A DNA stretch of 64,000 nt from a virus, in IMG/VR virus record IMGVR_UViG_3300037297_000135, positions 1-64,000 of that record. One strand, given 5' to 3'. Position 1 is the first letter of the stretch, and each line of letters begins with the position of its first letter. Of this stretch, positions 33,451 through 52,594 are shown in pieces. Made by a program: the position numbers and the translations under genes. A model generated the notes under the pieces. That model was not told the DNA's origin and searched no databases. It saw only the letters and a program-made list of their open reading frames with translations.

Positions 33451-34470
33451 TTGAATAAAAAAAATATAAACATAGTATATGCAAGGACTATTGATTATGA
33501 TTTTGACCTTCAACAAAGGCCACATCATATAATGAATATACTTGCTGAACGAGGATATGATGTGTCTTGGTTTGATTCTGATTTTTCAGTTAGAAAAAGA
33601 CAAAATAAAATGAGAACTAAAATAAATGATAATTTATATGTGTATTATGATTGGGAAGTTTTTAAAAAAAGATTTGCTAATCCTGATATTTATTTTAGTA
33701 CTTGGTCTAAAAGATATGAAGATTTGGTTGATATCAAACCTAAACTTGGTGTGATTTATGATTCATTAGATAACTTTGAAGAAAACAGTAAAGATGAATC
33801 AATGATGATAAGTAAGTCTGATATTGTTTTAACTACTTCTCAATCTATTTATAGATTAAGGAAAAAGGAACATAATAATGTTGTAATGTGTCCTAATGGT
33901 TGTTTTGAAAATATTAAAATCAAACAATATCCAATTCCGATTGATTTAAAAAAGAATGTTGATATGAATAAACCAATCATATTATTTAGTGGAGCATTAG
34001 CAAGATGGTGTGATATAGAGTTGTTAGAAACAATAGCTGATTTATATCAATTAGTATTTGTTGGAAAACCTTTTGGTGTTCCAAATGTTCCAGATAATTT
34101 TATATATTTGGGATGCAAAACATATGATGAATTACAAATGTATTATCATCATTGTGATATAACATTATTGCCTTTTAATAGGAAACAAGAAGCTTTATAC
34201 AGTGACCCAATAAAAATATATGAATCATTATCACATGGTAAAATTTGTATTTCAACAAAGATTGAAGAAGCTGAAAAATTTGATAGAAAAGTAGTATATG
34301 TATCAAAAAGCAGAGAACATTTTTTACAAAATATAAAAAAAGCTTTAAAGCACAAAGATACGCAAGAGACAAAAGATATATGTATTAAAGAAGCTAAAAA
34401 GCATTCATGGGGAAAAAGAGTTGATATTATAGAAAATTGTATAATGAAATTGGTAAATAAGGAGATTTAA
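33451..34470 (+). CDS. GT-B glycosyltransferase (GT4/TuaH-like)
   Basis: QQRPHHI, IYDSLD, FSGALARWCD, PIKIYESL. Confidence 0.85.
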   Translation: MNKKNINIVYARTIDYDFDLQQRPHHIMNILAERGYDVSWFDSDFSVRKRQNKMRTKINDNLYVYYDWEVFKKRFANPDIYFSTWSKRYEDLVDIKPKLGVIYDSLDNFEENSKDESMMISKSDIVLTTSQSIYRLRKKEHNNVVMCPNGCFENIKIKQYPIPIDLKKNVDMNKPIILFSGALARWCDIELLETIADLYQLVFVGKPFGVPNVPDNFIYLGCKTYDELQMYYHHCDITLLPFNRKQEALYSDPIKIYESLSHGKICISTKIEEAEKFDRKVVYVSKSREHFLQNIKKALKHKDTQETKDICIKEAKKHSWGKRVDIIENCIMKLVNKEI

Positions 34471-34471
34471 T

Positions 34472-35503
34472 ATGATTTTAAATAATAGGGATATAAACGT
34501 TTTGTTTTTGAATCCTGCACCCAGTTTAATTAAATATGGAATGTATTGGGGAGCAAAAAAATGTGGTTGTAATGCTGTGCTTTTGACTGATGAAAAAACA
34601 AGGGTTTTTACTGAAAGTCAGCAAGAACAATATAAAAGAATAGAAGCAGCAATTAAAAAATATGATATAAATGTTATATTTTGTGAAGGTTATGGTGGTA
34701 TGAATGCACCAGGAATAATAACACTTTGTAAAAAATATAATGTTCAATATCATCATTGGGCGATTGAAGACCCTGTAACACCTCATATTGGGGAAAATTT
34801 TGCTCGTGTTTCTAATTTTATTTGGACAACAACACAAGAATTTATATCAAAATATGAAAATATGGGATGCAAATCAGATTTATTGTTATTTGGTTGCAAT
34901 CCTGAATTTGATATAAACCCACCAGAAGAAAGATTTAAATCAGGAATATCTATTGTTGGAAGTAATTATGATAATAGATGGAAACAAGCAAAAGAATTCA
35001 TTTTGCCTTTGCTAGAGGATGAATTCGACCCTACAATTTATGGTTGGTGGTGGATGTCTGAAACACAACCATTTAAACTTCAGGATTATGGAAAAGAAAA
35101 ATATTATTGGATGATAAAAGAAGGAACACAAGACCAAGTCTTACCTTATGAATGGCTTCCGATAGTTGTAAATTCATCCAAGATTATGATTGGTTTAAAT
35201 TGTTCTGATGAATCAATAACACAAACATCATGTAGACCTTATGAAACATTATGTTTTGCTTATAATTCTGTATATCTTGCATGGTATACAAAAGCACAGG
35301 ATAGAATATTTGGAGATTATATTTATCAAGCTAAAACAGGTAAAGAAATGGTTGAAAAAGCAAGGATGATTTTAAAAATGACTGATGAAGAAAGACAAGC
35401 AAAAGCAACTAAAGCTAGAGAATGGGTTAGGAATTTTCATAGTTATGAATTAAGATTCCAACAAGTTGCTGAAAAGGTTAAGGAGTTAGATGCAAATGGC
35501 TAA
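34472..35503 (+). CDS. CgeB/YkvP-like glycosyltransferase
   Basis: WAIEDP, WTT, LLFGCNP, VNSSKIMIG, RPYE. Confidence 0.8.
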   Translation: MILNNRDINVLFLNPAPSLIKYGMYWGAKKCGCNAVLLTDEKTRVFTESQQEQYKRIEAAIKKYDINVIFCEGYGGMNAPGIITLCKKYNVQYHHWAIEDPVTPHIGENFARVSNFIWTTTQEFISKYENMGCKSDLLLFGCNPEFDINPPEERFKSGISIVGSNYDNRWKQAKEFILPLLEDEFDPTIYGWWWMSETQPFKLQDYGKEKYYWMIKEGTQDQVLPYEWLPIVVNSSKIMIGLNCSDESITQTSCRPYETLCFAYNSVYLAWYTKAQDRIFGDYIYQAKTGKEMVEKARMILKMTDEERQAKATKAREWVRNFHSYELRFQQVAEKVKELDANG

Positions 35504-35714
35504 TATGCAAAATGGGTATATAGAAAATATTTTTGTATATCATCCACCAAAAGAAGGACAACCAGAAAAATATGAAAGAATTAGAGCTAGTGTAAAAAAT
35601 ATAGCATATATATTTAATGCTGAATGTCCTGAATGTGAAGAATTTTATGAAGCAATAAAAAAACTAAGAGAAGCTGTTTCTTGGGCGAATGCTGCAATAG
35701 CAATAAATGAATAA
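35490..35714 (+). CDS. Acb2/Tad1-hairpin family cyclic-nucleotide sponge-like protein
   Basis: FVYHPPKEGQPEKYERIR...CPEC...AIKKLREAVSWANAAIA matches the short Acb2-like helical hairpin pattern as recalled. Confidence 0.65.
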   Translation: MQMANMQNGYIENIFVYHPPKEGQPEKYERIRASVKNIAYIFNAECPECEEFYEAIKKLREAVSWANAAIAINE

Positions 35715-35749
35715 TATCAAATTAAATTAAATTAACGGAGGGAATTAAG

Positions 35750-36676: not shown

Positions 36677-36698
36677 TATTAAATTAAATAGGGGAGAA

Positions 36699-36956: not shown

Positions 36957-36959
36957 AAA

Positions 36960-37559
36960 ATGAATGAAAATATAAATACGGTTGAATATTGGGATAAAAG
37001 ATTTGAAACTCAAAATGGTAAAACAAATTGGGAACTTTGTAACGGATGCAATCAATCAAAAAATTTCATGAAAACAATGATTAATAATTTGCCTGGACAA
37101 TGGATTTCAAAATTAAAGACATCTCACATTTTAGATGTGGGATGTGCTTTAGGAGATGGAACAAATTATTTATATAATAGATTTACAAAGGCTAAAATAG
37201 CAGGATATGATTTTTCGAAAAATGCTGTAAAATTAGCAAAGGAAAAATATCCAGATATAATTTTTTTAAATGAATTGATTAATGGAGAAAAATATGATTT
37301 TGTTTTAATAAACAATGTTTTACAATGTGTTGATGATTACGAAGAATTCATTAAAAGTTTTTTAGATGTTTCAAAAAAGTATATTGTGATAATGGTTCCT
37401 TTAGGAATCGAAGGAACAACAATTGAGCATTTTAATAAATTTGAATTAGAGTCATTTCCACAAGAAATTGGGAAGTTTTATAAAAGAAAACCAAAAATAG
37501 TAACTACTGATAATTGGTATTATAAACAAATCCTGATTAGATATGAAAGGATGGAATAA
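36960..37559 (+). CDS. Class I SAM-dependent methyltransferase
   Basis: NTVEYWDKRF, ILDVGCALGDG, GYDFS, YDFV. Confidence 0.85.
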   Translation: MNENINTVEYWDKRFETQNGKTNWELCNGCNQSKNFMKTMINNLPGQWISKLKTSHILDVGCALGDGTNYLYNRFTKAKIAGYDFSKNAVKLAKEKYPDIIFLNELINGEKYDFVLINNVLQCVDDYEEFIKSFLDVSKKYIVIMVPLGIEGTTIEHFNKFELESFPQEIGKFYKRKPKIVTTDNWYYKQILIRYERME

Positions 37560-37562
37560 AAA

Positions 37563-37835: not shown

Positions 37836-37837
37836 AT

Positions 37838-38851
37838 ATGAATATCTTGATAACATGTGATAGGCTTGATACTTTAGGTGGTCTTGAAGAGCATGTAATA
37901 AACAAAGTACAATATCTTTTAAATAATGGACATAGAGTTCATTTGGATTGCAACGCAATTAGTGAATATTATAAAAATAAAATATCACATAAAAATCTTT
38001 TAATATCATCACCGTGGAGTAATAATTGGGGTGATGTAATAAAAGATATAAATGGTTTTATGCCTGATATTATACATGCACATCCATTTAGTGCTATTGA
38101 CAGAGGTAATATTGTAAGAAGTTATTATTCAAAGGCAAAATTTTTTATAACAATACATGGTGAATATTGTTATACTGTTCCACATTATATATGTGATAGA
38201 ACAGATAAAATAATATTGGTTAATGATAAAATAAAGAATTACAATGACTATAAAACAGTTGTAATACCAAATGGTATTGATACAAAAAGATTTTCAAAAT
38301 CAAAAACCAAAAAAGAATATGATGGGTTAAAGACAAGAATAGCTGTAATATCAAGATTGCAAGATAACAAAGAAATACCTGTTTTTGAATTTTTAAATGT
38401 AAGTAATAGAATAAAATCATATATGCATATAGATATTGTAGGTGATGGCAAATATTTAGATGAAGTAAAAGAAAAAGTAAAAGAAAAAGATGAAAAATAT
38501 GTTCAATACAATATTACAGGTGCGGTTTCAAATGTTGAAATATATATGCAAGAAGCTGATTTGGTTTTGGGTTGTGATAGAGTTGCACTTGAAGCACTTT
38601 GTTGTGGAACTGATGTTTTTTACATGGGTCAAGGACATTGGAAAAATATTGTTACAATTTCAAATTATAAAGATTATATTTTTTCAAACAAAGGCATACA
38701 AAAATATACTGAAAATGAATTAGTTGATAATTTAAGCAGTTTGGTATGGAGTAAAAATTTAGGGAAACAACTTGGATTGTATGATGAAATTCGTAAAAAA
38801 TATAGTTTAGATGCACAAATGAAACAAATACTTGATTTGTATAAAGGGTGA
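37838..38851 (+). CDS. GT4-family glycosyltransferase
   Basis: GGLEEHV, IIHAH, TIHG, IPNGIDTKRF, IVGDG, ALEALCCG. Confidence 0.9.
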   Translation: MNILITCDRLDTLGGLEEHVINKVQYLLNNGHRVHLDCNAISEYYKNKISHKNLLISSPWSNNWGDVIKDINGFMPDIIHAHPFSAIDRGNIVRSYYSKAKFFITIHGEYCYTVPHYICDRTDKIILVNDKIKNYNDYKTVVIPNGIDTKRFSKSKTKKEYDGLKTRIAVISRLQDNKEIPVFEFLNVSNRIKSYMHIDIVGDGKYLDEVKEKVKEKDEKYVQYNITGAVSNVEIYMQEADLVLGCDRVALEALCCGTDVFYMGQGHWKNIVTISNYKDYIFSNKGIQKYTENELVDNLSSLVWSKNLGKQLGLYDEIRKKYSLDAQMKQILDLYKG

Positions 38852-39163: not shown

Positions 39164-39916
39164 ATGATACAAATTCTTTGGGCGACTGCAAGGCCTAAAA
39201 TGTTCATTCAAAGACATAAAAATTGGATGAAAAATGCAAGCAAAAAGCATTTTATTCATACATTAGTTGCTGTAAACACAATTGATGAAAAAGACGAAAT
39301 ATTATTGAATTATGATGAAATATCACAAAGGTTACAAGATTATCAAGTAAAAGTAAAAGTAACAGGTGATGAAAATTTAGGTGTTGTTTATCCAATTTAT
39401 GAGCTTTCAAAAGATTTGAAATTGAATGATAAAGATATTGTGATTGTGGTTTGTGATGATGTTGAATGTCCTGAAAATTGGGATGAATATTTAGTTGATG
39501 AATTTAAACTATGGAATGGGGCTTTAATGATTCGTGATGGATATCAACATTATGAATATGATATATCTAAAATGATTTCAAAAAAAATCATACCACCTGC
39601 TGTTTCAATGCCTGTAATGACATTTAAATGTTTAAAGAAATTGAATATGATTATATTTCATCCAGATTATAAACATTATTTTGCGGATAATGAATTGTTT
39701 TTGAATTTGTATGAACTTGGATTGTTGAAAGATGATAGAAATTCAGATAGTGTGATTTTCGAACATATTCATTATTGTACTGGAAAAAGAGCAAGTGATA
39801 AATTGGATGATAAAATCATAGGTTTGGGAAATCAAGATAGAGGAATGTATTTTAAAAGAATAAATTTAGCTGTTCAAGATAGAATAAAATTAAATAGTTT
39901 TGGAGAAAACAAATGA
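39164..39916 (+). CDS. GT-A (GT2-like) glycosyltransferase
   Basis: ATARP, VVCDDV, DG, YFADNEL, FEHIHY pattern. Confidence 0.6.
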   Translation: MIQILWATARPKMFIQRHKNWMKNASKKHFIHTLVAVNTIDEKDEILLNYDEISQRLQDYQVKVKVTGDENLGVVYPIYELSKDLKLNDKDIVIVVCDDVECPENWDEYLVDEFKLWNGALMIRDGYQHYEYDISKMISKKIIPPAVSMPVMTFKCLKKLNMIIFHPDYKHYFADNELFLNLYELGLLKDDRNSDSVIFEHIHYCTGKRASDKLDDKIIGLGNQDRGMYFKRINLAVQDRIKLNSFGENK

Positions 39917-40234: not shown

Positions 40235-42154
40235 TTGTTTATGGATGTTGTATTATGTCAATTTGGGAATATGATAGGCGATAATGTTTATTTGCCATAT
40301 TCTATAGGTTGTATTGTGTCTTATTGCAAGCCCAAAACAAAAGATATAAATTATAAGATGTTGTATATTAAAAAGGATATAAACACCATTTTGGACGAAA
40401 TAGGTACACCTGATGTGCTTGCAATGAGTTCATATATATGGAATCATCAATACAATCTCAGAATTGCAAAACTAATCAATATAAAAAACCCTCAAACAAC
40501 AATCATTTTTGGAGGGCATGAGATAAATGGATTTGATAAAGATATATTTCAAAAATATCCATTTATTGATTTTGTTGTGAATGGTGAAGGTGAATATACA
40601 TTTTATAAAATACTTCAATCATTAAAAGGCGAAAATCATTTTTTTTACAACCATACAATTAATATGGGTGGTTCAGCAATGATATTGAAACAAAAAAATG
40701 ATTTTATAGATATAAATGATATACCAAGTCCATATTTAACAGATATATTTGATGATATAATGAAAGAAAAATATAATTTTACAGCATCACTTGAAACAAA
40801 TAGAGGTTGTCCATATCAGTGTTATTATTGTGATTGGGGCAATCATAAGGTAACAAATAAAAAAATGAGATTGTTTAATGAAGACCGTGTAAATGCTGAA
40901 ATAGAATGGTTTGGGAAAAATAAAATAGATTTTGTTTTTGGTTGTGATAGTAATTATGGTTTTTATGGCAAAAGAGATATGAAGTTTATAGATGAAATAA
41001 TTGAAACAAAAAAGACATATGGATTTCCAAATAAATTTCGTGTTTGTTATACTAAAAATAGTGATGAAACAATTTTCAAAATGAATAAAAAATTAAATGA
41101 GTTCAATCTTTCGAAAGGGGCAACAATATCATTTCAAAGTTTTAATAAACAAACATTAAAAGCTGTTAAAAGAAAAAATATGGGTATACAAGATTTTCAA
41201 AAATATATATTAATGTATAACAAAGAAAATATTCCAGTATATACAGAATTAATATTAGGTCTTCCAGAAGAAACATATGAATCATTTAAAGAAGGATTTA
41301 ATATTTTATTAAATAATATGCAACATAGTAATATTGTTGTATATTATTGTCAGGTATTAGAAAATAGTAAATTAAATGAAAAAGAATATAAAGAAAAATA
41401 TGATATAAAAATATCAAAGATTCCAATGTATGCTACACATACAAAATTTGAAAAAGACCAGATATTTGAATATGAAAACATTGTTGTAAAAACAGAAAAA
41501 ATGTTTAGAACTGATTGGGTTTGGTCTTGTATGTTTAGTTGGAGTGTTCAAACATTTCATTGTTTGGGTTTAACTCAATATATAGCTATACATTTAAAAT
41601 ATGTATATGGAATTGAATACAAAGATTTTTATACTAATTTAATATATTTAGAATTTAATAATAGTATTAATTTAATAAAAAATGAATATTTTAAAGTTAT
41701 GCATATATTTAATCAGGTTGCAGTTGAAAAAGGAAGTTTTAAATATATAGTAGATGATATAAATTGGCCGATTGAAGAAGGAAGTTTTCTTCATTTTATA
41801 GATAATTTTGATTTGTTTTATTTAGAAATTGTGGAATTTTTATTTAAAAAATATCCTGAAATCGCAAAAAATAAAGAAATAACTGAATTGATAAATTTTA
41901 ACAAATATATGTTATGTAAATATAATGACAAAATTTTTCATATGAAGATGAATTATTCATTTGTAGATATATTTGAAAAATATTTTGAAACTGGAAAATA
42001 TGAATTTGAAGAATGTAAAAATAGAACATATTATCCAGCAACAAAAAAATATAAAAATTTTAAAGATTTTGCTATAAATGTAGTTTGGTATGGTCGTAAA
42101 GGTGGAAAAACATTTAAGAATTTAAATGATATTAAAGTAGAGTATATTAAATGA
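40235..42154 (+). CDS. Cobalamin-binding radical SAM enzyme
   Basis: LPYSIG, SSYIWN, IFGG.E, GEGE (B12-binding); ETNRGCPYQCYYCDWG (CxxxCxxC); ELILGLPEET. Confidence 0.92.
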   Translation: MFMDVVLCQFGNMIGDNVYLPYSIGCIVSYCKPKTKDINYKMLYIKKDINTILDEIGTPDVLAMSSYIWNHQYNLRIAKLINIKNPQTTIIFGGHEINGFDKDIFQKYPFIDFVVNGEGEYTFYKILQSLKGENHFFYNHTINMGGSAMILKQKNDFIDINDIPSPYLTDIFDDIMKEKYNFTASLETNRGCPYQCYYCDWGNHKVTNKKMRLFNEDRVNAEIEWFGKNKIDFVFGCDSNYGFYGKRDMKFIDEIIETKKTYGFPNKFRVCYTKNSDETIFKMNKKLNEFNLSKGATISFQSFNKQTLKAVKRKNMGIQDFQKYILMYNKENIPVYTELILGLPEETYESFKEGFNILLNNMQHSNIVVYYCQVLENSKLNEKEYKEKYDIKISKIPMYATHTKFEKDQIFEYENIVVKTEKMFRTDWVWSCMFSWSVQTFHCLGLTQYIAIHLKYVYGIEYKDFYTNLIYLEFNNSINLIKNEYFKVMHIFNQVAVEKGSFKYIVDDINWPIEEGSFLHFIDNFDLFYLEIVEFLFKKYPEIAKNKEITELINFNKYMLCKYNDKIFHMKMNYSFVDIFEKYFETGKYEFEECKNRTYYPATKKYKNFKDFAINVVWYGRKGGKTFKNLNDIKVEYIK

Positions 42155-43985: not shown

Positions 43986-44445
43986 AATTGAACATCAAGG
44001 AAAAAAATATTGGGTTTCAAGAAGTTGTGCGGTAAGTGCTTTTGTTAAAGGATTTGATAAAAATGGTGATGAATATGTACTTGCGATAACAAGAGGAAAA
44101 GCTTCACCAGATAATATAGGTAAAAAATGTGTACCATGTGGTTATTTAGATGGAGATGAAACATTATTAGATTGTGTTGTAAGAGAAGTATTTGAAGAAA
44201 CAGGGCTTAAAATTAATAAAGATAAATTTGAATATATAGAATTTAGTGATGATTTAAGCAACAATTATCAAAATATTTCATTTAGATATAAGACTGTAAT
44301 ATTAAGTATTGAAAAGAATATTCCATATATTACAAATATTGAAGAAAATGAAGTTGATGAAGTTAAATGGATAAAACTTGATGATATTGAAAAATATGAT
44401 TGGGCTTTTAATCATTTAGAATTAATAAAAACATATATTTGTTAA
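43972..44445 (+). CDS. NUDIX hydrolase
   Basis: PCGYLDGDETLLDCVVREVFEETGL Nudix box; WAFNH. Confidence 0.88.
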   Translation: MKNFEIEHQGKKYWVSRSCAVSAFVKGFDKNGDEYVLAITRGKASPDNIGKKCVPCGYLDGDETLLDCVVREVFEETGLKINKDKFEYIEFSDDLSNNYQNISFRYKTVILSIEKNIPYITNIEENEVDEVKWIKLDDIEKYDWAFNHLELIKTYIC

Positions 44446-44451
44446 TCATAT

Positions 44452-44526
44452 AGGGGTATAGCTTAATTGGCTTAAAGCGACAGTCTCCAAAACTGTTAGA
44501 TGTCGGTTCGAATCCGACTACCTTTG
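44452..44526 (+). tRNA. tRNA-Trp(CCA)
   Basis: ACAGT-CTCCAAA-ACTGT; GTCGG-TTCGAAT-CCGAC. Confidence 0.9.
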
Positions 44527-44552
44527 TTCAAATAAAAAAAAGAGGTATTTAA

Positions 44553-44798
44553 ATGAATAATAAATTTGTTTTTGAATGTCCTGAATGCAAGGGGAAAAGC
44601 AAAATTGATTTAACAAGAGAAGAAATTATAAAAACATATATTGGTTCAACAACAGATTGTAGTTATTGTAATGCTTTGTTGCAGATTAGTGAAGATTTAA
44701 CCGTTATAAATTTTGGTAAAAAACTTCAAAAAGCATATGAAAAAATGGGATGCAAATGTACAATTGAAGAAGCAAAAAATAGTTTTATTGAATTTTAA
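44553..44798 (+). CDS. Small zinc-ribbon protein
   Basis: CPEC...CSYC. Confidence 0.6.
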   Translation: MNNKFVFECPECKGKSKIDLTREEIIKTYIGSTTDCSYCNALLQISEDLTVINFGKKLQKAYEKMGCKCTIEEAKNSFIEF

Positions 44799-44802
44799 AT
44801 TT

Positions 44803-44873
44803 GGCGGATTACTCTAGTGGCAGGAGAACCGACTTTCTATCGGTTAACAACAGTTCGATTCTGTTATCCGTCA
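44803..44873 (+). tRNA. tRNA-Glu(TTC)
   Basis: Acceptor GGCGGAT/ATCCGTC; ACCGA-CTTTCTA-TCGGT; AACAG-TTCGATT-CTGTT. Confidence 0.82.
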
Positions 44874-44877
44874 TTTT

Positions 44878-44951
44878 GGGTCTTTAACTCAGATGGTTAG
44901 AGTGTTCGGTTCATACCCGAATTGTCAGAGGTTCAAGTCCTCTAAGACCTA
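44878..44951 (+). tRNA. tRNA-Met/Ile2(CAT)
   Basis: Acceptor GGGTCTT/AAGACCT; TTCGG-TTCATAC-CCGAA. Confidence 0.88.
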
Positions 44952-44963
44952 TTTATACATACA

Positions 44964-45036
44964 GGACATTTAGCTCATTTGGTAGAGCATTCGGCTTTTA
45001 ATCGAAGGGTGCAGGGTTCAAATCCCTGAATGTCCA
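44964..45036 (+). tRNA. tRNA-Lys(TTT)
   Basis: Acceptor GGACATT/AATGTCC; TTCGG-CTTTTAA-TCGAA. Confidence 0.92.
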
Positions 45037-45048
45037 TTTTGATTGTAG

Positions 45049-45252
45049 GTGAATAAAATGAGATATACAAAAAAGTTATTAGATAAAAGAATATGTGATG
45101 TTGAAAAAAATTGTGATATCACTAAAACTTATAGAGAATGGCTTGAAGATTTAAGTGAACAAATAATTGGTATAAAATTGAATTTTGATTCAATGAATGA
45201 TGATGAATTAAATAATGCAGTTGATGAATTGATTTGGCTTTCATACAAATAA
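45049..45252 (+). CDS. Hypothetical protein
   Basis: Small ORF between tRNAs. Confidence 0.5.
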   Translation: MNKMRYTKKLLDKRICDVEKNCDITKTYREWLEDLSEQIIGIKLNFDSMNDDELNNAVDELIWLSYK

Positions 45253-45325
45253 GTTGAAGTAGCTCAGTTGGTAGAGCATCGGACTGAAAATCCGAGTGTC
45301 AATGGTTCAATTCCATTCTTCAACA
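45253..45325 (+). tRNA. tRNA-Phe(GAA)
   Basis: Acceptor GTTGAAG/CTTCAAC; TCGGA-CTGAAAA-TCCGA. Confidence 0.93.
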
Positions 45326-45329
45326 TTTT

Positions 45330-45445
45330 TGCCCCTGTCTGGCGACGTGAAGAATAATTGGTATATTAATGGTTTCAGTATACGTACGGTGCTGTAAGTT
45401 AATATATGGCAAATTCGAGTAACAGTTCGATTCTGTTCGGGGTAA
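45330..45445 (+). ncRNA. tRNA-like RNA with T arm and acceptor-like helix but a long central hairpin
   Basis: GCCCC/GGGGT ends; T arm AACAG-TTCGATT-CTGTT; TATATTAA/TTAATATA stem. Confidence 0.45.
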
Positions 45446-45464
45446 TAAATTAATTTAATAAAGG

Positions 45465-45704
45465 ATGATTGAAATTAATATTGAAAATGAAATAAAATTA
45501 TTAATTGAAAAATGCAAAAGAAGAAGAAAAGAACTTGGATTAAGTCAAAGACAAGTTGGAGAAAAAATCGGAAAACATAAAAATGTTATTGAATCAATTG
45601 AAAATTTTAGACATACTCCCAATATAGGTTTGTTTATTTTATATGCTAATGCTTTAGATTTAGAAATAATAATTTCTAAAAAACAATATACAATATTAAA
45701 TTAA
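45465..45704 (+). CDS. XRE-family HTH regulator
   Basis: RRKELGLSQRQVGEKIG...IESIEN...P.I...ANAL. Confidence 0.85.
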   Translation: MIEINIENEIKLLIEKCKRRRKELGLSQRQVGEKIGKHKNVIESIENFRHTPNIGLFILYANALDLEIIISKKQYTILN

Positions 45705-45715
45705 AAAACAAATAT

Positions 45716-45786
45716 GCGTATGTAATTTAACGGTAGAATATTAGATTACCAATCTAATTGTGAGAGTTCGATTCTCTTCATACGCT
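45716..45786 (+). tRNA. tRNA-Gly with unusual ACC anticodon
   Basis: Acceptor GCGTATG/CATACGC with U73; TTAGA-TTACCAA-TCTAA; GAGAG-TTCGATT-CTCTT. Confidence 0.8.
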
Positions 45787-46003: not shown

Positions 46004-46981
46004 ATGAAAATTTTAATTACGGGAGCTTATGGATTTATAGGTTTTCATTTAGCGAATTTTTTATATTCAAAAGGACATCAAATTTGTTTAATTGACAATT
46101 TTTTCAAAAATCAAGATACTGAAGAAGCACATATAATGTATGAAGAATTTGTTTATGACAAAAACATTTGTAGTTTTGATTTAGATTTGACTGATTTTTC
46201 AAATGTTGATTGGGCTTTAACTGAAAAAGAATTTGATATTGTATTTCATTTAGCTGCAATTAATGGAACAGAAAATTTTTATAGAAGGCCAACAAAGATA
46301 ATTGAAAACAATTTTTTAGCTACAATGAATGTTTTAAAAAATATAAAGTGTAAAAAATTTGTGTTTACATCTAGTTGTGAAGCTTATGCAAGCACAGTAA
46401 ATCAAAATATATGTGATATACCAACAAATGAAAAAGTTTTGTTAAGTGTTGAAGATATAATGAATCCTAGATGGAGTTATGGAGGAACAAAGATTTTAGA
46501 AGAATTGTATGTAAAAAACTATTGTACTGAAAACAATATAGATTTTTTAATTTTAAGGTATCATAATATATATGGTATCAGAGATTCACTAAAACATGTT
46601 ATACCAGCATTGTTTAAAAGATGTTTTAGCGAAGAAGATTTTGTGAATATTTATGGAAATTGCACAAGGTCTTTTTTATATATTAAAGATTGTATTGAAT
46701 ATACAATGAGATTGGCAGAATCAAAACATTGCAAAAATGATATATATAATGTTGGAATGCAAGAAGAAGTTTCAATTAAAGAAGTTGTACAAAATATATT
46801 GAGTATATTTAATGTTAATAAGTTGATAAAAATATATGATAAACCAGAAGGTTCGGTTTTAAGAAGATGTCCTGATATGCAAAAAACTATAAATGCAACT
46901 GGATTTAAACCAAAATATAATTTGTATACTGGTTTAAATGAAATGGCTTGGTATTATGAGAAAAAAGGTATTGTGATATAA
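46004..46981 (+). CDS. NAD-dependent epimerase/dehydratase (extended SDR, UDP-uronate decarboxylase-like)
   Basis: ITGAYGFIG, HLAAING, TSSCEAY, PRWSYGGTK, RYHNIYG, TRSFLYI, RRCPD. Confidence 0.92.
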   Translation: MKILITGAYGFIGFHLANFLYSKGHQICLIDNFFKNQDTEEAHIMYEEFVYDKNICSFDLDLTDFSNVDWALTEKEFDIVFHLAAINGTENFYRRPTKIIENNFLATMNVLKNIKCKKFVFTSSCEAYASTVNQNICDIPTNEKVLLSVEDIMNPRWSYGGTKILEELYVKNYCTENNIDFLILRYHNIYGIRDSLKHVIPALFKRCFSEEDFVNIYGNCTRSFLYIKDCIEYTMRLAESKHCKNDIYNVGMQEEVSIKEVVQNILSIFNVNKLIKIYDKPEGSVLRRCPDMQKTINATGFKPKYNLYTGLNEMAWYYEKKGIVI

Positions 46982-47008
46982 TATACATATATTTTAAAGA
47001 TTGGAGAG

Positions 47009-47576: not shown

Positions 47577-48338
47577 TTGAATATACCAGAATGGGATAAT
47601 AGAATTTCACCATTGCATTTTAAAAGTGAAATGTTTATTGATTATATTTCACAAATCAAATTATGCATTAAAGAAAAAGCACCGTATTCATGGATTCGTA
47701 TAGGTGATGGAGAAGAGAATGTTTTAGGTCAAGATTATATTTATCCATCAAATAACGTAAGAGCACATGTAAGTTGGTGGAATAATTCAAATTATTGTGG
47801 AACAACATTACCTAATTTAGAATTGCGTGATAGAATGATTGAAGCATATAAAGGTTCAGAAGCAGTAGGATTATTTATTGAACAAAATAGTGTTACAATA
47901 AAAATTTTCAATAAAATAGGGATTCAGCCAAGGCAAATTTTTTATGGATATGATAATGTACATTTGCCTATGAATCCAATATTTGTTAGAATGTTATGTG
48001 AGAATAAAATTTTAGTAGTTGGAGGTGGAAATAGAAATGGACGGAATGGAGAATATTTTGTAAAAAAAATAAAAGAAAAATTGGATATTGATATTGATTT
48101 TGTAAATGGTATAAAATCATATATTGATATTGAAAATTGTATGAATCAAATAAGGAAAAAAGAATTTGATATTGCTTTAGTGTGTGCTGGTGTAAATGCT
48201 AAGGTAATATGTTGGGAGTTGTCCAGAGAAATGAATAAAGTATTTATGGATTTTGGACATGCTTTTGACAATGCTTTTTATGAAGATGAAAAAGGAAATT
48301 ATAAAGATTATTTTTTACTTGACAAAACAATGATATAA
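47577..48338 (+). CDS. GT-D-fold glycosyltransferase-like protein
   Basis: SWIRIGDGE, ILVVG, IALVCAGVNAKVIC, MDFGH. Confidence 0.75.
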   Translation: MNIPEWDNRISPLHFKSEMFIDYISQIKLCIKEKAPYSWIRIGDGEENVLGQDYIYPSNNVRAHVSWWNNSNYCGTTLPNLELRDRMIEAYKGSEAVGLFIEQNSVTIKIFNKIGIQPRQIFYGYDNVHLPMNPIFVRMLCENKILVVGGGNRNGRNGEYFVKKIKEKLDIDIDFVNGIKSYIDIENCMNQIRKKEFDIALVCAGVNAKVICWELSREMNKVFMDFGHAFDNAFYEDEKGNYKDYFLLDKTMI

Positions 48339-48439
48339 TATTAAAATAAATATGTAAAGTCGATATAGGATGTTTTTTCTTAAGTTATTTTCAAATAGGT
48401 AAAAAAAAAGATTTGTGAATCACAAGTCTTTTTTTTTAT

Positions 48440-48468
48440 TTGACATATAAATTAATTAATGATATTAT
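48440..48468 (+). promoter_or_regulatory. Sigma-A type promoter (extended -10) upstream of the tRNA-mimic RNA trio
   Basis: TTGACA, 17-bp spacer, TGnTATTAT; preceded by a terminator hairpin at ~48402-48438. Confidence 0.7.
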
Positions 48469-48487
48469 AATTAAAAGAAACAAACTT

Positions 48488-48588
48488 AATGTGATTTTAG
48501 AACTAATAGCTCAATTGTTAGAGCATTAGAATTTTAATCTAAAGGTTAAGGGTTAAAATCCCTTTTTGTTCAACGATAGAATTGCATT
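48488..48588 (+). ncRNA. Y-RNA-like element 1: degenerate tRNA-Lys-like core inside a closing helix
   Basis: AATGTGATT/AATTGCATT outer helix; core 48500-48572 with TAGCTCAATTGTTAGAGC, TTAGA-ATTTTAA-TCTAA and T loop TTAAAAT. Confidence 0.6.
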
Positions 48589-48636
48589 TTCATTGTTTCT
48601 TTTTCTTAAATAAAAATTTTTAAAAGATAAAAACTT

Positions 48637-48748
48637 TATGTGATTTCAGAATATTAAAATAGCTCAATTGGTAGAGCACAATAATGTGGATATTGATGTT
48701 GTGGGTTCAATTCCTACTTTTAAACAAAAATTCAATTGCAATCGCATA
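48637..48748 (+). ncRNA. Y-RNA-like element 2: tRNA-His-like core inside a closing helix
   Basis: TATGTGATT/AATCGCATA helix with AATTGCA motif; core with TAGCTCAATTGGTAGAGC, CAATA-ATGTGGA-TATTG and GTGGG-TTCAATT-CCTAC. Confidence 0.62.
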
Positions 48749-48786
48749 TGCATTTTATCTTTTATTTAAATATATAATTAGAAACT

Positions 48787-48912
48787 GAGTGTGATTTCAG
48801 AATATTTTTATAGGTTCAAATCCTATTCCCCGCTTAAATATGCGGGGATGGTGCAATTGGTAGACACACTTGAATATAAATCAAGCAAATTAAAATTAAT
48901 AAAATTGCACTC
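48787..48912 (+). ncRNA. YrlA-like Y RNA: circularly permuted tRNA-like module
   Basis: GAGTGTGATTT/AAATTGCACTC helix. Order is T arm (ATAGG-TTCAAAT-CCTAT), loop-closed acceptor stem (TCCCCGC...GCGGGGA), D arm (GTGCAATTGGTAGACAC), anticodon-like arm. Confidence 0.7.
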
Positions 48913-48939
48913 TTATTCTAATTTTTTAAGGATGGTTTT

Positions 48940-50445
48940 ATGGAAAAATTTAATTTTGATGCAAGTATTCTTCAATTCACGCCAAAAGGGTCATATTACA
49001 ATACTGAATCTGAACAAAATCAAAAAATAACAGAGCAATGGAAAGAGTTTTTGCAATATGATAGATTGCTTTTTGCATTGATTTTGTTTTTACCAACTTC
49101 AGATTATGCTTTTGGAAGAATAAGTCATTTGTTATGTAAAAATAAAACTACTGAGATAGTTTCTAAAGATTTTAAAATAACTAATGATTTTGAAGAGAAA
49201 ATAATATTGAATGGTTTAAGAAAACAACCAATGCCAAGAGCACTAAAGAATCTTTTAATGTTTACAAATGCAAACATTGGAAGAGTGAATAATGCTAAAG
49301 TTCGAAATATAATATTGAAATATATATTTCAAAGGGATTTAAATTCATTGGATTCAATGTGTTGTAATTTTAAAGATAAAATAAAATTGCTTTTGAAACA
49401 TGTATATGGTAAAAAGATTTGGAGGGTTTTAAATGGGAGAAATTTATTTGGTATAACAAATGTGCATGAAAGAGCATTAGATGTTTTGAAGTTTTGTTTC
49501 AACAAATCTTTTGATACAAAAGATTTAAATATGATGAATGCATATATATGTTTAAGAGAATATGCAAAAGAAAATAGATTGGATTCATTTTTAGATTTAG
49601 CTAAAAAATCAAAAATGAACATTGAAATTTTGATAGGCTTTAAAGCTTTATATAAATTAAATATTGATTTAAGTGAAATATATGATGCTGGAAATATGAG
49701 TGAAAAACAAAAGATACAAAAGGTAAGAGCAGTTGAAAGAACTGGAACTAAACAAGATATAAATTATAAAAATTATGATATATATGATTTGTATAAGATG
49801 TTTTATGTAAAATTAACAAACAATGAAACAAATGATATGGATTTGATTGCTGAAGCAATTGAATTTCAATCAAATAAAAAAATGGATATTGATTTAGGTG
49901 AAATTGTAGTGATTATGGATGCAAGTAAATCTATGATTGGTTCCGAAACAAGACCATATCATCCATTTTTAACAGGATTGAGTTTAGTAAGTAAGTTGCC
50001 AAATGTAAAAGATGTAATGTTTGTTGGTGGTGAATATGTTGATACATATTCAAATAATATGCCAAAAGCAATTGTACCAAGTGGAGCAACAAAAATTTGG
50101 GAATCTTTAATTCAAGCTGTAAATAAATATCCTGATACAATTGTTTTGATATCTGATGGTTATGAAAACAATGTAAAAGGATTAACAAATCAAATATATG
50201 AAAAATTAAAAAAAGAAGGTAAAGAATTTAATATTATACATATAAATCCTGTTTTTGCTGCTGAAACAGGAAATGCAAGAAGATTGATAAAAGAAATAAA
50301 ACCATTTATAATTGAAAATTATAGAATGATTAAAACAAATCTTATATTTCAACTTATAATGGATAACAAAGAATTAGCAATCAAGATGTTGTTTAATGAA
50401 TATAAAAAATTAGAAGTTAAAGAATTGAAAAGGTTAAAAGGGTGA
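48940..50445 (+). CDS. Helical + C-terminal vWA protein, divergent Ro60/TROVE-like
   Basis: 501 aa; MIDAS DASKS, GATKI, ISDGYEN; N-terminal helical region; directly downstream of the tRNA-mimic RNAs. Confidence 0.55.
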   Translation: MEKFNFDASILQFTPKGSYYNTESEQNQKITEQWKEFLQYDRLLFALILFLPTSDYAFGRISHLLCKNKTTEIVSKDFKITNDFEEKIILNGLRKQPMPRALKNLLMFTNANIGRVNNAKVRNIILKYIFQRDLNSLDSMCCNFKDKIKLLLKHVYGKKIWRVLNGRNLFGITNVHERALDVLKFCFNKSFDTKDLNMMNAYICLREYAKENRLDSFLDLAKKSKMNIEILIGFKALYKLNIDLSEIYDAGNMSEKQKIQKVRAVERTGTKQDINYKNYDIYDLYKMFYVKLTNNETNDMDLIAEAIEFQSNKKMDIDLGEIVVIMDASKSMIGSETRPYHPFLTGLSLVSKLPNVKDVMFVGGEYVDTYSNNMPKAIVPSGATKIWESLIQAVNKYPDTIVLISDGYENNVKGLTNQIYEKLKKEGKEFNIIHINPVFAAETGNARRLIKEIKPFIIENYRMIKTNLIFQLIMDNKELAIKMLFNEYKKLEVKELKRLKG

Positions 50446-50449
50446 TGAA

Positions 50450-51400
50450 ATGGATATTTTGAGTAAATTAGGTTTTAAAAATATAGAATATGATGAAATG
50501 CAAATTGTAGACGAAATGAGTATGATTCCTCTTTTATCAGATGGTTTAAGTAAAAACATTTCATCACCTGAAAATATACAATTTTTTGAAGTTGGAACTT
50601 ATGGTTCAATGGAGTTTAAAAATGCAGATAGCAATACCAACAACTATGGGATTGTGCCATCAAATACAATGATTTTAAACAACAAGGTACAAGTTCAAGA
50701 CCATGCAATGATTGAAGCAGGTGTTGTAAAAGCAGGTACATATAAAAATTTTAGTAATGCGTGTTGTGTTCAAGAAAAACAACATGGATTTTTAAATGGT
50801 ACGAATAAAAATAATGAATATGATATTTTGCCTTTGGGTTTAAGAAGGGCAGCAACAAGAGAAAAATTAAGACAGGATTGCAATTGTGGTAAACTTTGGC
50901 CTGCAATCAGAGAATGGTTAAAAGGTTTTAATTTTATGGAAAGTTATGCTCATTTAGAATATTTTTTTACTCCATTCAAAAAACAATTAGATGATTTTGT
51001 TGCAGAATTTGAACCAGTTAAAAATCAAATAGGAGCAATAATTCTATTTGGCAATATGTTAGCAGGCATAGAAATTATGCCTACAATTGAACATTGGAAT
51101 CATTATTGGAAATGGTTGGTTCGAGGATGTTATGGAGCTGAATTGTTAAAAATACGTGAAATTGGACAAATCGAATTGAAATCAATTTCAATACCAGAAA
51201 TGCCTTTTGACTCAATAAATAATTATTTAAATATGTTAAAAGATACAATTTTAAATAGTTTGAACTTAAACTTTAATGAATTGGGAAGTAAAAACTATGG
51301 TGAAAATCAATTAAAACATAAACTAATAAAAATTGAATCTGGTGGTGGAGATTTGATTTTAGAAAACAATAAACCAATATATTTAAGTTGTGTTTTGTGA
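50450..51400 (+). CDS. Conserved protein, ARPP-1 (DUF6569)-like
   Basis: QDHAM, NACCVQE, ILPLGLR, KLWPAI, AHLE, FVAEFEPV.NQIGAII, RGCYG; family recalled from memory. Confidence 0.4.
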   Translation: MDILSKLGFKNIEYDEMQIVDEMSMIPLLSDGLSKNISSPENIQFFEVGTYGSMEFKNADSNTNNYGIVPSNTMILNNKVQVQDHAMIEAGVVKAGTYKNFSNACCVQEKQHGFLNGTNKNNEYDILPLGLRRAATREKLRQDCNCGKLWPAIREWLKGFNFMESYAHLEYFFTPFKKQLDDFVAEFEPVKNQIGAIILFGNMLAGIEIMPTIEHWNHYWKWLVRGCYGAELLKIREIGQIELKSISIPEMPFDSINNYLNMLKDTILNSLNLNFNELGSKNYGENQLKHKLIKIESGGGDLILENNKPIYLSCVL

Positions 51401-51531
51401 TTGACAAAATGATATTGAAATGATAATATTTATGTGAGACTTCAAAATCAAAATTATAATGAGATTAAAAAAAATAAAGAACTTGTTCTTTTCCTCAGTT
51501 CTTTATTTTTTTTGTCTATGCAATCCATAAT

Positions 51532-51560
51532 TTGACATTGATATAAGGTATTGTTATAAT
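51532..51560 (+). promoter_or_regulatory. Consensus sigma-A promoter upstream of GT2-chaperone-tape measure genes
   Basis: TTGACA, 17-bp spacer, TGnTATAAT. Confidence 0.75.
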
Positions 51561-51616
51561 TGTAATATAATTTATTTTTTTTAATTTTTAACTAATTTTA
51601 TAGGGGAGTATTAAAA

Positions 51617-52594
51617 ATGAATAGTAAAACTATAACTATAGGTTGTCCTATATCTAACAGGGCATATCTTATTGAACGATTTTTAAATGGAATTTACAAA
51701 TTAAACTATGATAAAAAATTAATAAAATTATATTTTGTAGTTAACAATTCAAAAGATTCAACATATTCAGATTTAAAAGAGTTTGAAAGAAAACATAAAG
51801 ATGAATATCTAAATATTAAAATTGAAAAATATAAAATCAAATCTGCTAAAGAAGCAAGGGTAACAAAAATAAGATTAAAAACATACAGTAGACTTGCTGA
51901 ATTAAGAAATTATATTTTGTCAAATATTGATACTGATTATTTTTTTAGTTTAGATTCAGATATTATGGTTGATATTAATTTGGATTGTTTGAATAAGCTT
52001 TTAGAAGCTCAAAAAGATATAATTGCTGCTGTAATAAATAATGATAGTATGTTAAGGCCAAATGCAAAATATCCTAAAATTAGAACTAATTTGCTTAAAA
52101 ATGTAGATAAAGGTATAACTCATATATTGGATTGGAAACTTAATGAAATATTTGAAGTTGACCATACTGGAGCAGTATATTTGTTGACAAAAGATGTTTG
52201 CAAAAATGTTCAATATGGGTTTCATAAACAAGGTGAAGATATGGCATTTTGCAATATGGCAAAAGAAAAAGGATATAAAATTTTTGCTCATGGTGGTATT
52301 TTTTTACAACATATAATGAGAGAATATCAATCTTTTTGTATTGAAAATAAATGCCAAAATCCATGTGTTGTGTTGAATAAAAAAATGAAAATTGGTAAAA
52401 ATGAAGATGGAAAACTAGGAGAAGTAAAAAATGATATTGATTTAACATATCAATATAAATTTGTAGATAATGTTAAATATCCTGATTTGGTTGGTTGTGG
52501 AAAATTAAAAAAAGGTGAAAAAGCATTGTTTAATAATGATTTTTATAACCCTTTGGATGATATAAAAGGAGAGAATTTAAATGAAAAAAAGTGA
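51617..52594 (+). CDS. GT2-family glycosyltransferase
   Basis: IGCPISNR, VVNNSKDST, LAELRN, FSLDSD (DxD), TGAVYL, GEDMAFC. Confidence 0.88.
   Translation: MNSKTITIGCPISNRAYLIERFLNGIYKLNYDKKLIKLYFVVNNSKDSTYSDLKEFERKHKDEYLNIKIEKYKIKSAKEARVTKIRLKTYSRLAELRNYILSNIDTDYFFSLDSDIMVDINLDCLNKLLEAQKDIIAAVINNDSMLRPNAKYPKIRTNLLKNVDKGITHILDWKLNEIFEVDHTGAVYLLTKDVCKNVQYGFHKQGEDMAFCNMAKEKGYKIFAHGGIFLQHIMREYQSFCIENKCQNPCVVLNKKMKIGKNEDGKLGEVKNDIDLTYQYKFVDNVKYPDLVGCGKLKKGEKALFNNDFYNPLDDIKGENLNEKK

Follow-up and report, generated by a model that had tools for sequence, protein, structure and literature searches.

A conserved and diversifying glycan locus beside the tail-tube gene in a clade of tailed phages

Why does a tailed phage carry a long series of glycosyltransferase (GT) genes among the genes of its tail, and what do their products glycosylate? 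The question is raised by the IMG/VR virus record IMGVR_UViG_3300037297_000135, which is 130,483 bp long, is rated 100% complete by CheckV and has a GC content of ~25%. We analyzed its first 64 kb (hereafter the window), in which a preliminary description made from the sequence had placed one large glycosylation pathway at positions 33451-52594. The span holds a real, conserved, diversifying phage glycan locus, distinguished by its fixed site, the swapping of its cassettes, its enzyme families and a TokK-like enzyme. As for its function, the cytoplasmic glycosylation of virion proteins, probably those of the tail, by an acidic methylated glycan has in our judgment roughly an even chance of being correct.

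The ten enzymes named in the preliminary description (three GT-B, two GT-A and one GT-D-like protein, a methyltransferase, a B12 radical S-adenosylmethionine [SAM] enzyme, a dehydrogenase and a short-chain dehydrogenase/reductase [SDR]) were all present, with support from Pfam, NCBIfam or structural models. Its placing of these genes in the structural region was also borne out, since they lie between the tail-tube and tape-measure genes. So was its claim that the locus encodes its own sugar-donor synthesis, by a nucleoside diphosphate (NDP)-sugar dehydrogenase and a 4-epimerase-like SDR, and its own tailoring, by the SAM methyltransferase and the B12 radical SAM enzyme. The genes of the module are the following (Pfam matches were counted at or above the curated cutoff; ORF, open reading frame; aa, amino acids).

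33451..34470, + strand: GT-B glycosyltransferase of the GT1 type, weakly TuaH-like (PF00534 Glycos_transf_1, 29.4 bits, cutoff 26.4); scaffold member
34472..35503, + strand: CgeB/YkvP-like GT-B protein (PF13524 Glyco_trans_1_2, 36.5 bits, cutoff 25); scaffold member, always beside the GT1 gene
36960..37559, + strand: class I SAM-dependent methyltransferase (Methyltransf_12/31/11); accessory tailoring enzyme
37838..38851, + strand: GT4-type GT-B glycosyltransferase, weakly TuaC-like (PF13439 Glyco_transf_4, 35.3 bits, cutoff 28.5); accessory member
39164..39916, + strand: "p250," predicted GT-A-fold glycosyltransferase of 250 aa (AlphaFold2, Foldseek and invariant D98-D99); scaffold member
40235..42154, + strand: cobalamin-dependent (class B) radical SAM C-methyltransferase, TokK/CysS/KedN5-like (B12-binding PF02310 and Radical_SAM PF04055)
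42475..43695, + strand: NDP-sugar 6-dehydrogenase (UDPG_MGDP_dh_N and _C domains; TIGR03026, 265 bits, cutoff 189.8)
43942..44445, + strand: NUDIX hydrolase (PF00293, 56.5 bits)
46004..46981, + strand: extended SDR, 4-epimerase-like (PF01370 Epimerase, 142.9 bits); partner of the dehydrogenase
47577..48338 (longer ORF, 47502-48338), + strand: GT-D-like glycosyltransferase (PF22882, 153.7 bits, cutoff 27); scaffold member
51617..52594, + strand: GT-A glycosyltransferase, Anp1/GT2-like, with a D-S-D motif (PF03452 Anp1, 44.4 bits, cutoff 28.8; PF00535 Glycos_transf_2, 26.9 bits, cutoff 23.3); scaffold member

The module interrupts the late gene series of the phage, for which these landmarks were used.

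16388, + strand: terminase gene of the late series
18127, + strand: portal gene of the late series
21510, + strand: capsid-like gene of the late series (major capsid protein, MCP)
25468..26238, + strand: gene of the major tail (tube) protein, MTP (phrog_2729, virion structural protein); upstream flank of the insertion site
26257-26296: strong terminator after the tail-tube gene
52581-53003 and 53018-53305, + strand: two putative tail assembly chaperone genes, assigned solely by position; downstream flank of the insertion site
53328-59579, + strand: tape measure gene (phrog_4211, E 6e-61)
59832, + strand: Dit gene
60656, + strand: Tal gene

The large terminase shares 33% identity with its counterpart in Clostridium phage c-st, and SPbeta-type (YonF) terminases are more distant relatives. 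Some 26 kb separate the tail-tube gene from the small genes at 52581 and 53018, and the span 33451-52594 makes up the last 19 kb of that gap. Related contigs (given L numbers below) were retrieved via alignments of GT-D-like homologs, radical SAM proteins and the tail-tube protein. Among GenBank phages, megablast of positions 33000-53000 gave no match; tblastn against 50,697 GenBank phage records gave none for the GT-D-like protein, the CgeB-like protein or p250, and two weak ones for the radical SAM protein. Single-protein scans of IMG/VR with the GT-D-like or the radical SAM protein also returned no match, whereas the alignment queries did retrieve contigs: the metagenome contigs L006, L003/L004, L007 and L008 with the GT-D-like alignment, and the IMG/VR contig L166 with the radical SAM alignment. 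These contigs carry GT1, CgeB, GT4, p250, radical SAM, dehydrogenase, SDR and GT-D genes contiguously, at 35-50% identity, and a tape measure gene lies ~3-6 kb downstream of the set in L003, L004 and L006. In this survey of cluster conservation, a check that the preliminary description had proposed, the same genes recurred in synteny on >10 independent contigs.

The position of the module is fixed within this phage clade: it comes soon after the tail-tube gene. In the module-bearing relatives L083, L175, L176 and L180, whose MTPs are 61-70% identical to that of the window phage (and whose MCPs are 62-66% identical where the locus includes MCP), the GT1 and CgeB-like genes come straight after the tail-tube gene. 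Module-lacking relatives are L177-L179 (MTP 57-58%) and L181/L182 (MTP 38%, with head and tail genes otherwise syntenic), so that identity of the tail-tube protein ranges over 57-71% in the closer relatives and drops to 38% in the latter pair. In all five, homologs of the 52581 and 53018 genes lie within 300-450 bp of the tail-tube gene; the tape measure gene follows these chaperone homologs in L181/L182, and no tape measure match was obtained in L177-L179. The far side of the module is reached by the locus of one relative, L175, where the order is MTP, GT1, CgeB-like, DegT aminotransferase, hexapeptide acyltransferase, GT-D, GT2, p250, FkbM methyltransferase, Anp1-like GT-A and chaperones, the module genes being tightly packed with no convincing internal terminator. 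The last GT gene of the window (51617) overlaps the first tail-chaperone gene by 14 nt at its 3' end, and its L175 copy (50% identity) overlaps the L175 chaperone gene by 11 nt; read from sequence, this overlap argues for late lytic expression.

Around this site a constant scaffold, made of the GT1, CgeB/YkvP-like, GT-D-like, p250 and Anp1-like GT-A genes, is kept while donor and tailoring genes are exchanged between relatives. The cassette of the window phage comprises the dehydrogenase, SDR, radical SAM enzyme, methyltransferase and GT4. The L003 cassette comprises Gmd, DegT, two SDRs and the radical SAM enzyme, with Gmd, DegT and an SDR in place of the dehydrogenase. The order in L180 is GT1, CgeB, GT-D, homing endonuclease, GT2, two p250 copies, FkbM methyltransferase, Gmd and SDR. 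A methyltransferase 40% identical to the 36960 protein stands at the same relative place in L083; L175 and L180 have an FkbM-type enzyme in place of the class I methyltransferase. The GTs of the module are more diverged (29-52% identity) than the flanking capsid and tube proteins (61-70%). Cassette swapping round a constant scaffold is the pattern of exposed glycans under diversifying selection.

What do the scaffold enzymes look like individually? No transmembrane segment was found in any module enzyme, including the GT1 protein at 33451. The latter matches the TuaH model at E 1e-10, far below the model's cutoff, and has homologs of 27-52% identity in L001, L006, L083, L166, L175, L176 and L180. 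Over its whole length (residues 8-343) the CgeB-like protein has a structural match in the Atlas to a cluster annotated "spore protein YkvP" (TM score, 0.86); neither a YkvP_N (PF12996) nor a LysM domain was detected with Pfam, and copies in relatives are 37-54% identical. The PF13524 model is unspecific, with matches in 14/14 control genomes; within the 130-kb genome, PF00535, PF13524 and PF22882 each match solely inside 33451-52594. Counterparts of the accessory GT4 occur in L003, L004, L006, L007, L011 and L166, the L006 protein carrying a fused N-terminal p250-like domain. Copies of the Anp1-like GT-A adjoin GT1 or CgeB in L001, L011, L013 and L166 (30-39% identity).

The p250 protein had no match in the Pfam, NCBIfam and PHROG libraries and no sequence relative in the PDB. 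A search of 1.84 billion representatives returned relatives in 258 clusters at 50% identity, many of them fused to GT2, GT4, GT8, TOD1(-like) or cytidylyltransferase domains. Its AlphaFold2 model, built from 67 sequences, has a predicted local distance difference test (pLDDT) score of 94. The Foldseek matches listed from the PDB are all GT-A, with a probability of 1.0 at each of ranks 1-50, and include chondroitin synthase, WrtF, TarS and LH3. D98-D99 is invariant in the 67 sequences and provides an acidic DXD-type motif. On the strength of this model, the GT-A assignment made in the preliminary description holds. In the Atlas clusters nearest to p250, 96-100% of the members having a taxon record are viral, and the family appears virus-restricted and without a Pfam model.

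For the GT-D-like gene, the start at TTG 47577, given in the preliminary description, is better than 47502, since it agrees with the AGGGGAG ribosome-binding site ahead of it and with the length of the 253-aa homologs. The stretch R-I-G-D-G-E, with its DXE motif (D69-G-E71), is invariant across 13 homologs and aligns with the R-F-G-D-G-E stretch of 4pfx. The AlphaFold2 model (pLDDT 80) has as its sole Foldseek PDB matches at E <= 0.001 the DUF1792 GT-D structures 4phr, 4pfx and 5v4a (TM scores of 0.42-0.45). The closest homolog, P0003 (69% identity), is encoded on a 123.8-kb contig.

Turning to the donor, the dehydrogenase has as its nearest solved structures the UDP-N-acetylmannosamine (UDP-ManNAc) dehydrogenases Cap5O and a Pyrococcus horikoshii enzyme (136 and 126 bits), compared with ~55-60 bits for UDP-glucose dehydrogenases. 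Its central domain scores 23.4, slightly under the cutoff of 25.4, and it stays below the cutoffs of all the substrate-specific equivalogs (UDP-ManNAc, UDP-Glc and TviB). Copies of 41-46% identity are found in L006, L007, L008 and L166, and right after the dehydrogenase L006, L007 and L008 also have the SDR (39-40% identity). The nearest solved structure to the SDR is the chain of 6zl6/6zla/6zld, which we take to be the Bacillus cereus UDP-glucuronate 4-epimerase. These sequence relationships suggest that the two enzymes yield a nucleotide-linked (N-acetyl)hexuronic acid donor. The NUDIX hydrolase at 43942 had no homolog in the related loci and its membership in the module is uncertain; it possibly trims nucleotide-sugar or nucleotide pools.

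The radical SAM protein has an intact CX3CX2C motif, the cysteines of which are invariant in five phage orthologs. It scores 280 bits against PDB TokK (7kdx) over residues 42-471 and 158 bits against CysS; the NCBIfam KedN5-family model gives 250 bits, below its cutoff of 700, and matches only residues 55-389. Enzymes of the TokK/CysS/KedN5 subfamily alkylate unactivated sp3 carbons, often iteratively. Copies (43-47% identity) lie just downstream of p250 in L003, L004, L006, L007, L008 and L166, and a p250 gene stands just upstream in every locus having a radical SAM gene. The enzyme is kept with a uronic-acid donor cassette (window and L006) as well as with an amino-deoxy-sugar cassette (L003). 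This constancy across donor cassettes suggests an invariant portion of the glycan, and not the changing donor, as the substrate of the enzyme. No match came from a literature search that combined cobalamin radical SAM enzymes with phage and glycan. We also considered that the enzyme might act on a ribosomally synthesized and posttranslationally modified peptide (RiPP) and rejected this reading, as the flanking small ORFs (39913-40230 and 42151-42462) are not conserved.

How might such a module work? The soluble scaffold GTs, joined in the window phage by the GT4, would use nucleotide sugars to assemble an oligosaccharide right in the cytoplasm. The dehydrogenase and the 4-epimerase-like SDR would supply the nucleotide-linked (N-acetyl)hexuronic acid, and the SAM methyltransferase and the TokK-like radical SAM C-methyltransferase would tailor the glycan. 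The acceptor would be a virion protein, most likely one of the tail, modified during particle assembly late in infection, and the outcome would be an acidic methylated glycan coat differing in structure between related phages. The most inferential part of this scheme is the acceptor, and the donor's identity, the timing and what the radical SAM enzyme acts on are inferred as well. The preliminary description had recognized no flippase, polymerase or base hydroxymethylase, and the same is true of the whole CheckV-complete genome, where searches with working positive controls gave no Bac_transf (PF02397), WecA-type (PF00953), Wzx (PF01943) or Wzy (PF04932) match. Since the module has no transmembrane segments, priming transferase, Wzx or Wzy, synthesis on an acceptor exposed to the cytoplasm is indicated, and a lipid-linked polysaccharide made by an autonomous pathway was rejected on the same grounds. 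Calling the pathway autonomous was in any case too strong, as host UDP/GDP-sugar precursors and host cobalamin are still required. Six GT-like genes between the tail-tube and tape-measure genes are also what phage virion glycosylation would lead one to look for, namely, GTs beside structural genes, and the same setting is seen in L083, L175, L176 and L180.

A virion target is favored by the fixed site in the tail operon, the chaperone overlap, the apparently viral p250 family, the exchange of cassettes and the precedent of the mycobacteriophages. Several observations weigh against virion glycosylation. No Ser/Thr-rich tail or tract, such as known or suspected glycoproteins of phages have, was found on the MCP, the MTP or any virion protein of the window phage (the richest in Ser/Thr among these being the BspA-type leucine-rich repeat [LRR] protein, Dit and Tal). 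The MTPs of module-bearing and module-lacking relatives are equal in length, their alignment revealing no distinguishing tag, and inside the module there is no conserved nonenzyme gene. A candidate sigma-A-type promoter of its own precedes the first GT gene, here and in relatives, which makes expression outside the late program, e.g., in a plasmid prophage, possible. The YkvP structural family and the bacterial relatives of the GT-D-like protein are found mainly in spore-forming Bacillota, and in the L006/L166 lineage the upstream neighbor is a Rep_3 gene, with no recognized tail-tube gene. Of the virion glycan pathway proposed in the preliminary description, the phage-borne multienzyme locus in the tail operon stands, and its virion target is a candidate one, given the lack of Ser/Thr tags and the likeness of tube proteins with and without the module.

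The span also contains elements that do not belong to the module, together with candidate signals, as follows.

44451..45786, + strand: six tRNA genes (Trp, Glu, Met, Lys, Phe and Gly) and small ORFs (ARAGORN, Rfam); insertion splitting the module
48401..51513, + strand: Y-RNA-like tRNA mimics with Ro60-like and ARPP-1-like genes in a promoter-to-terminator operon; inserted separate operon
33336-33366, + strand: terminator-like hairpin with a T-run, read from the sequence, ahead of the first GT gene
33379-33407, + strand: candidate sigma-A-type promoter TTTACA-17-TATAAT (11/12 consensus matches), ahead of the 33451 gene
51532..51560, + strand: candidate perfect sigma-A promoter TTGACA-17-TATAAT with TG (12/12 consensus matches), after a terminator-like hairpin and ahead of the last GT gene and the tail genes

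Both promoters were recognized by consensus match alone. In the second insertion, tRNA-like units were located at 48500 and 48653 (ARAGORN/Rfam) and an ARPP-1 match covers 50450-51400. Neither the tRNA array nor the Ro60/Y-RNA operon is present in any related module (in L006, L007 and L008 the SDR gene directly adjoins that of the dehydrogenase, with no tRNA array between them), and ~10 small ORFs of the span have no counterpart in any related locus. The 19-kb span is thus not one contiguous pathway: the enzymes that the preliminary description had joined into one are real and syntenic elsewhere, and they are interrupted here by two unrelated insertions and by small ORFs.

Which other explanations could account for the locus? 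The soluble GTs might decorate a host polymer accessible from the cytoplasm, such as a wall-teichoic or teichuronic acid precursor, a flagellin or S-layer protein that awaits export, or, in the mother cell, the coat of the spore, with superinfection exclusion, masking of receptors on the debris of lysed cells or altered spores of a plasmid-phage lysogen as the effect. We consider such remodeling of the host or spore surface unlikely, though far from negligible. The best match of the CgeB-like protein is the YkvP spore family (TM score, 0.86), and among the 80 nearest matches the bacterial relatives of the GT-D-like protein (25-38% identity) come almost all from Paenibacillus, Clostridia, Peptococcaceae and Syntrophomonas. 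In such bacteria these genes form small islands that, like the GT loci of the spore crust, lack export genes (CgeB, GT1, GT1, an unknown gene and GT-D in Oscillibacter; GT-D, dehydrogenase and GT2 in Paenibacillus). The weak resemblance to TuaH, TuaC and TuaD and the candidate sigma-A-type promoters before 33451 and 51617 point in the same direction, and there is an established precedent in TarP and similar prophage GT-A enzymes, which glycosylate wall teichoic acid in the cytoplasm. However, a change of surface late in the lytic cycle, as implied by the fixed site in the tail operon and the chaperone overlap, would be of little benefit, and the p250 family appears viral rather than bacterial. 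Lysogenic-conversion GTs, moreover, usually lie near immunity or integration modules, and the spore-former bias among the 80 matches may merely mirror the host phylum. By analogy, the link to spores would be mainly one of shared logic, since spore coats and virions are both protein shells built in the cytoplasm, so the same soluble enzyme families suit both. A quite different acceptor in the cytoplasm, i.e., a nonvirion phage or host protein, a soluble or secreted glycoconjugate, or a small-molecule glycoside alkylated on aglycone or sugar by the TokK-like enzyme, seems to us improbable. It would fit the lack of an acceptor tag on the virion proteins and the fact that TokK, CysS and KedN5, the nearest characterized relatives of the radical SAM enzyme, all belong to antibiotic pathways; in the viral contigs L167-L174, moreover, radical SAM genes of this type accompany SDR, DegT, aldo-keto reductase and dehydrogenase genes, and the GT scaffold is missing. 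Yet a locus with five to six GTs is indicative of an oligosaccharide carried by a macromolecular acceptor, no polyketide synthase, nonribosomal peptide synthetase or RiPP precursor genes were seen (the small ORFs beside the radical SAM gene being unconserved), and the fixed position in the tail operon would be left without explanation.

Two further explanations are, in our view, very improbable. The GTs could hypermodify DNA by adding sugars to hydroxymethylated bases, as in T-even phages and the 5-hydroxymethylcytosine (5hmC)-glycan systems of Pyle et al. In favor of this, 5hmC does receive mono- to trisaccharides, with hexuronic acids among them, from GT-A and GT-B enzymes of phages (bioRxiv 10.1101/2023.12.21.572611), the p250 family appears virus-restricted and TarS is among its fold matches. 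Known DNA-glycan pathways are, however, defined by a ThyA-like hydroxymethylase or a C5 methyltransferase (bioRxiv 10.1101/2023.12.21.572611), the second acting together with 5mYOX/TET, and the complete genome has neither the former (PF00303) nor the latter (PF00145), in searches whose controls worked; Tet/JBP (PF12851) also had no match in the complete genome, in a search that had no positive control. The module moreover sits in the tail operon and not beside replication or nucleotide-metabolism genes. The GT-D and CgeB families are not known to act on DNA. Nor do we give much credence to the idea that there is no single pathway at all and that the span is a patchwork of independently acquired morons, several of them sugar enzymes. 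The tRNA array, the Ro60/Y-RNA operon and the nonconserved small ORFs would agree with it, as would the several promoter and terminator pairs in the span; against it, the same enzyme genes are contiguous, in the same order and without the insertions, in L006, L007, L008, L166, L175 and L180, and the junctions overlap or lie within ~40 nt of each other through 33451-38851 and 39164-44445, two blocks separated by a gap of 313 nt.

The locus has parallels in several known systems. In mycobacteriophages, subunits of the capsid and of the tail tube are glycosylated by glycosyltransferases that the phages themselves encode (Freeman et al. 2023, Cell Host Microbe 31:1216, as summarized in PMC12619734). 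The mycobacteriophages concerned, Che8, Corndog and Myrna, are similar to the window phage in encoding soluble GTs for which cytoplasmic modification of structural proteins has been proposed, and they differ in that their hosts are Actinobacteria and their glycans were shown chemically on C-terminal extensions of capsid and tail-tube subunits. The window locus, in contrast, is known from its genes, lacks a C-terminal or Ser/Thr tag and greatly exceeds the mycobacteriophage loci in size, with 5-6 GTs, enzymes of donor synthesis and a B12 radical SAM enzyme; it also has a fixed site after the tail-tube gene and swaps cassettes. Methyltransferases can accompany the GTs in mycobacteriophage virion glycosylation. 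In the autonomous glycosylation clusters of giant viruses (chloroviruses and mimiviruses), virus-encoded nucleotide-sugar enzymes occur together with methyltransferases, as they do in the window, which differs in belonging to a tailed phage of a low-GC bacterium and not to a eukaryotic virus. Bacterial O-antigen and capsule loci share with our locus a conserved position and the swapping of donor-synthesis and GT cassettes between close relatives, and differ in that the window phage is without Wzx, Wzy and priming transferase.

A further parallel within bacteria is the spore crust of Bacillus subtilis (CgeB, CgeD, SpsA, YtcA/B/C, YfnD-F and CotSA; PMC10502511), where soluble GTs, likewise of the CgeB/YkvP, GT-A and GT4 types, act on a protein shell built in the cytoplasm and need no lipid carrier, flippase or polymerase. 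The spore-crust genes lie on the chromosome under the control of sporulation, whereas the window genes stand in a phage tail operon; the window CgeB-like protein differs from the spore enzymes in having no detected YkvP_N or LysM domain, and the GT-D-like family (PF22882) is absent from B. subtilis. The dehydrogenase, epimerase and GT4 trio of the window resembles ytcABC. The glycosylation of serine-rich repeat (SRR) adhesins by dGT1/DUF1792 (4PFX, 4PHR and 5V4A) shares the GT-D fold, the DXE motif in an R-x-G-D-G-E context and the stepwise elongation of a protein-bound O-glycan in the cytoplasm. The window GT-D-like protein is, however, just 14-15% identical to dGT1 (TM scores of 0.42-0.45) and belongs to PF22882 rather than PF08759, and the window has neither an SRR substrate nor an accessory Sec system. 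Finally, TokK/ThnK, CysS and KedN5 have the same B12-binding domain, CX3CX2C cluster and TokK-like core as the window radical SAM protein. They alkylate carbapenem, aminobenzoate or naphthoate intermediates of antibiotics, whereas the gene of the window enzyme closely follows a GT-A gene within a glycan locus; were its substrate a sugar or a glycan, this would be a first for the TokK-like subfamily.

Some further features of the window and of the related contigs deserve mention. Between tail-tube terminator and glycan module (26318-33292), the window contains several units that look independent of one another: two small, acidic proteins rich in Ser/Thr (26318 and 26831), a very acidic BspA-type LRR protein (27258-29126; Ser+Thr 27%; K+R 9 vs D+E 52), one membrane protein and one secreted protein, an Amidase_3 lysin (31334), a NUDIX hydrolase (32611) and a tRNA-Tyr (33209). 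None of these units is at the same site in L083, L175, L176 and L180. In these four relatives the leader from tail-tube to GT1 gene (L083 10790-10880, L175 10798-10885, L176 10765-10873 and L180 10777-10932) has a TTGACA-type promoter, then a strong hairpin with a T-run, then the ribosome-binding site and GT1 start. A promoter followed by a terminator recalls late operons controlled by antitermination (lambda PR'-tR'); in the window the order is reversed, with the terminator (33336-33366) first and the promoter (33379-33407) second. Within the span, 35750-36676 encodes a Lys/Glu-rich, charged low-complexity ORF of 308 aa with a weak phrog_29668 match, which the related modules do not share; opposite to it, the other strand has an open frame of 203 aa. 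The 313-bp gap between GT4 and p250 (38857-39130) encodes two very hydrophobic peptides of ~32 and 59 aa, the sole membrane-like products inside the module.

Among the relatives, the tail-tube protein of L181 (9989-11092) and of L182 (same coordinates) has an extra C-terminal extension of ~110 aa that resembles a bacterial immunoglobulin (Ig)-like domain. The L181 extension had no PDB sequence match, and the extension is not found in the module-bearing phages; it is speculative that a glycan coat replaces an Ig-like decoration of the tail tube. In L166, a Rep_3 plasmid-type initiator gene (3758-4777) lies between the Anp1-like GT-A and GT1 genes, and the phages of the L006/L166 lineage may be phage-plasmids. 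The gene between GT-D and GT2 in L180 (13729-14256) is similar to HNH/AP2 homing endonucleases and may drive cassette exchange. The tape-measure region of L006 (13101-17333) is apparently split: a 606-aa ORF ending in PhageMin_Tail/TMP_3 domains is followed by a small ORF, a sigma70_r4/helix-turn-helix ORF (15336-15926) and more tape-measure-like sequence, and the interruption may be an inserted mobile gene. L172 (1-19912 of IMGVR_UViG_3300033069_001718, 125.5 kb) represents a richer phage sugar-tailoring locus without the GT scaffold of the window, with three B12 radical SAM genes among SDRs, DegT, an aldo-keto reductase and an NDP-sugar dehydrogenase that is either split or short.

What, then, does the locus mean for the biology of these phages? 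Enzymologists may find in it a GT-A family of 258 clusters that lacks annotation and appears confined to viruses, a GT-D-like family of which no member has been studied and a B12 radical SAM enzyme of the TokK type among glycan genes; radical SAM alkylation of a glycan, if true, would be a type of reaction so far undescribed for glycans. Should the host or spore surface be the target, the locus would be an unusually elaborate conversion module within a late operon. To our knowledge, experiments have demonstrated virion glycosylation in no phages but those of Actinobacteria, whose particles it shields from antibodies. As a broader picture, which we think less likely than not, a large siphovirus lineage of anaerobic low-GC bacteria may keep an O-antigen-like hypervariable glycan locus in its tail operon, coating tail or virion with strain-specific glycans made wholly in the cytoplasm by GT families otherwise used on spore coats and adhesins, with a TokK-like radical SAM enzyme alkylating the invariant portion of that glycan in some members. 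In that case virion "serotypes" would be widespread among phages in general and not a peculiarity of mycobacteriophages. If virion glycosylation is the function, phages of an unrelated lineage would have serotype-like surface glycans under diversifying selection, with a bearing on host recognition, on escape from recognition by host or predator and on the design and immunogenicity of therapeutic phages.

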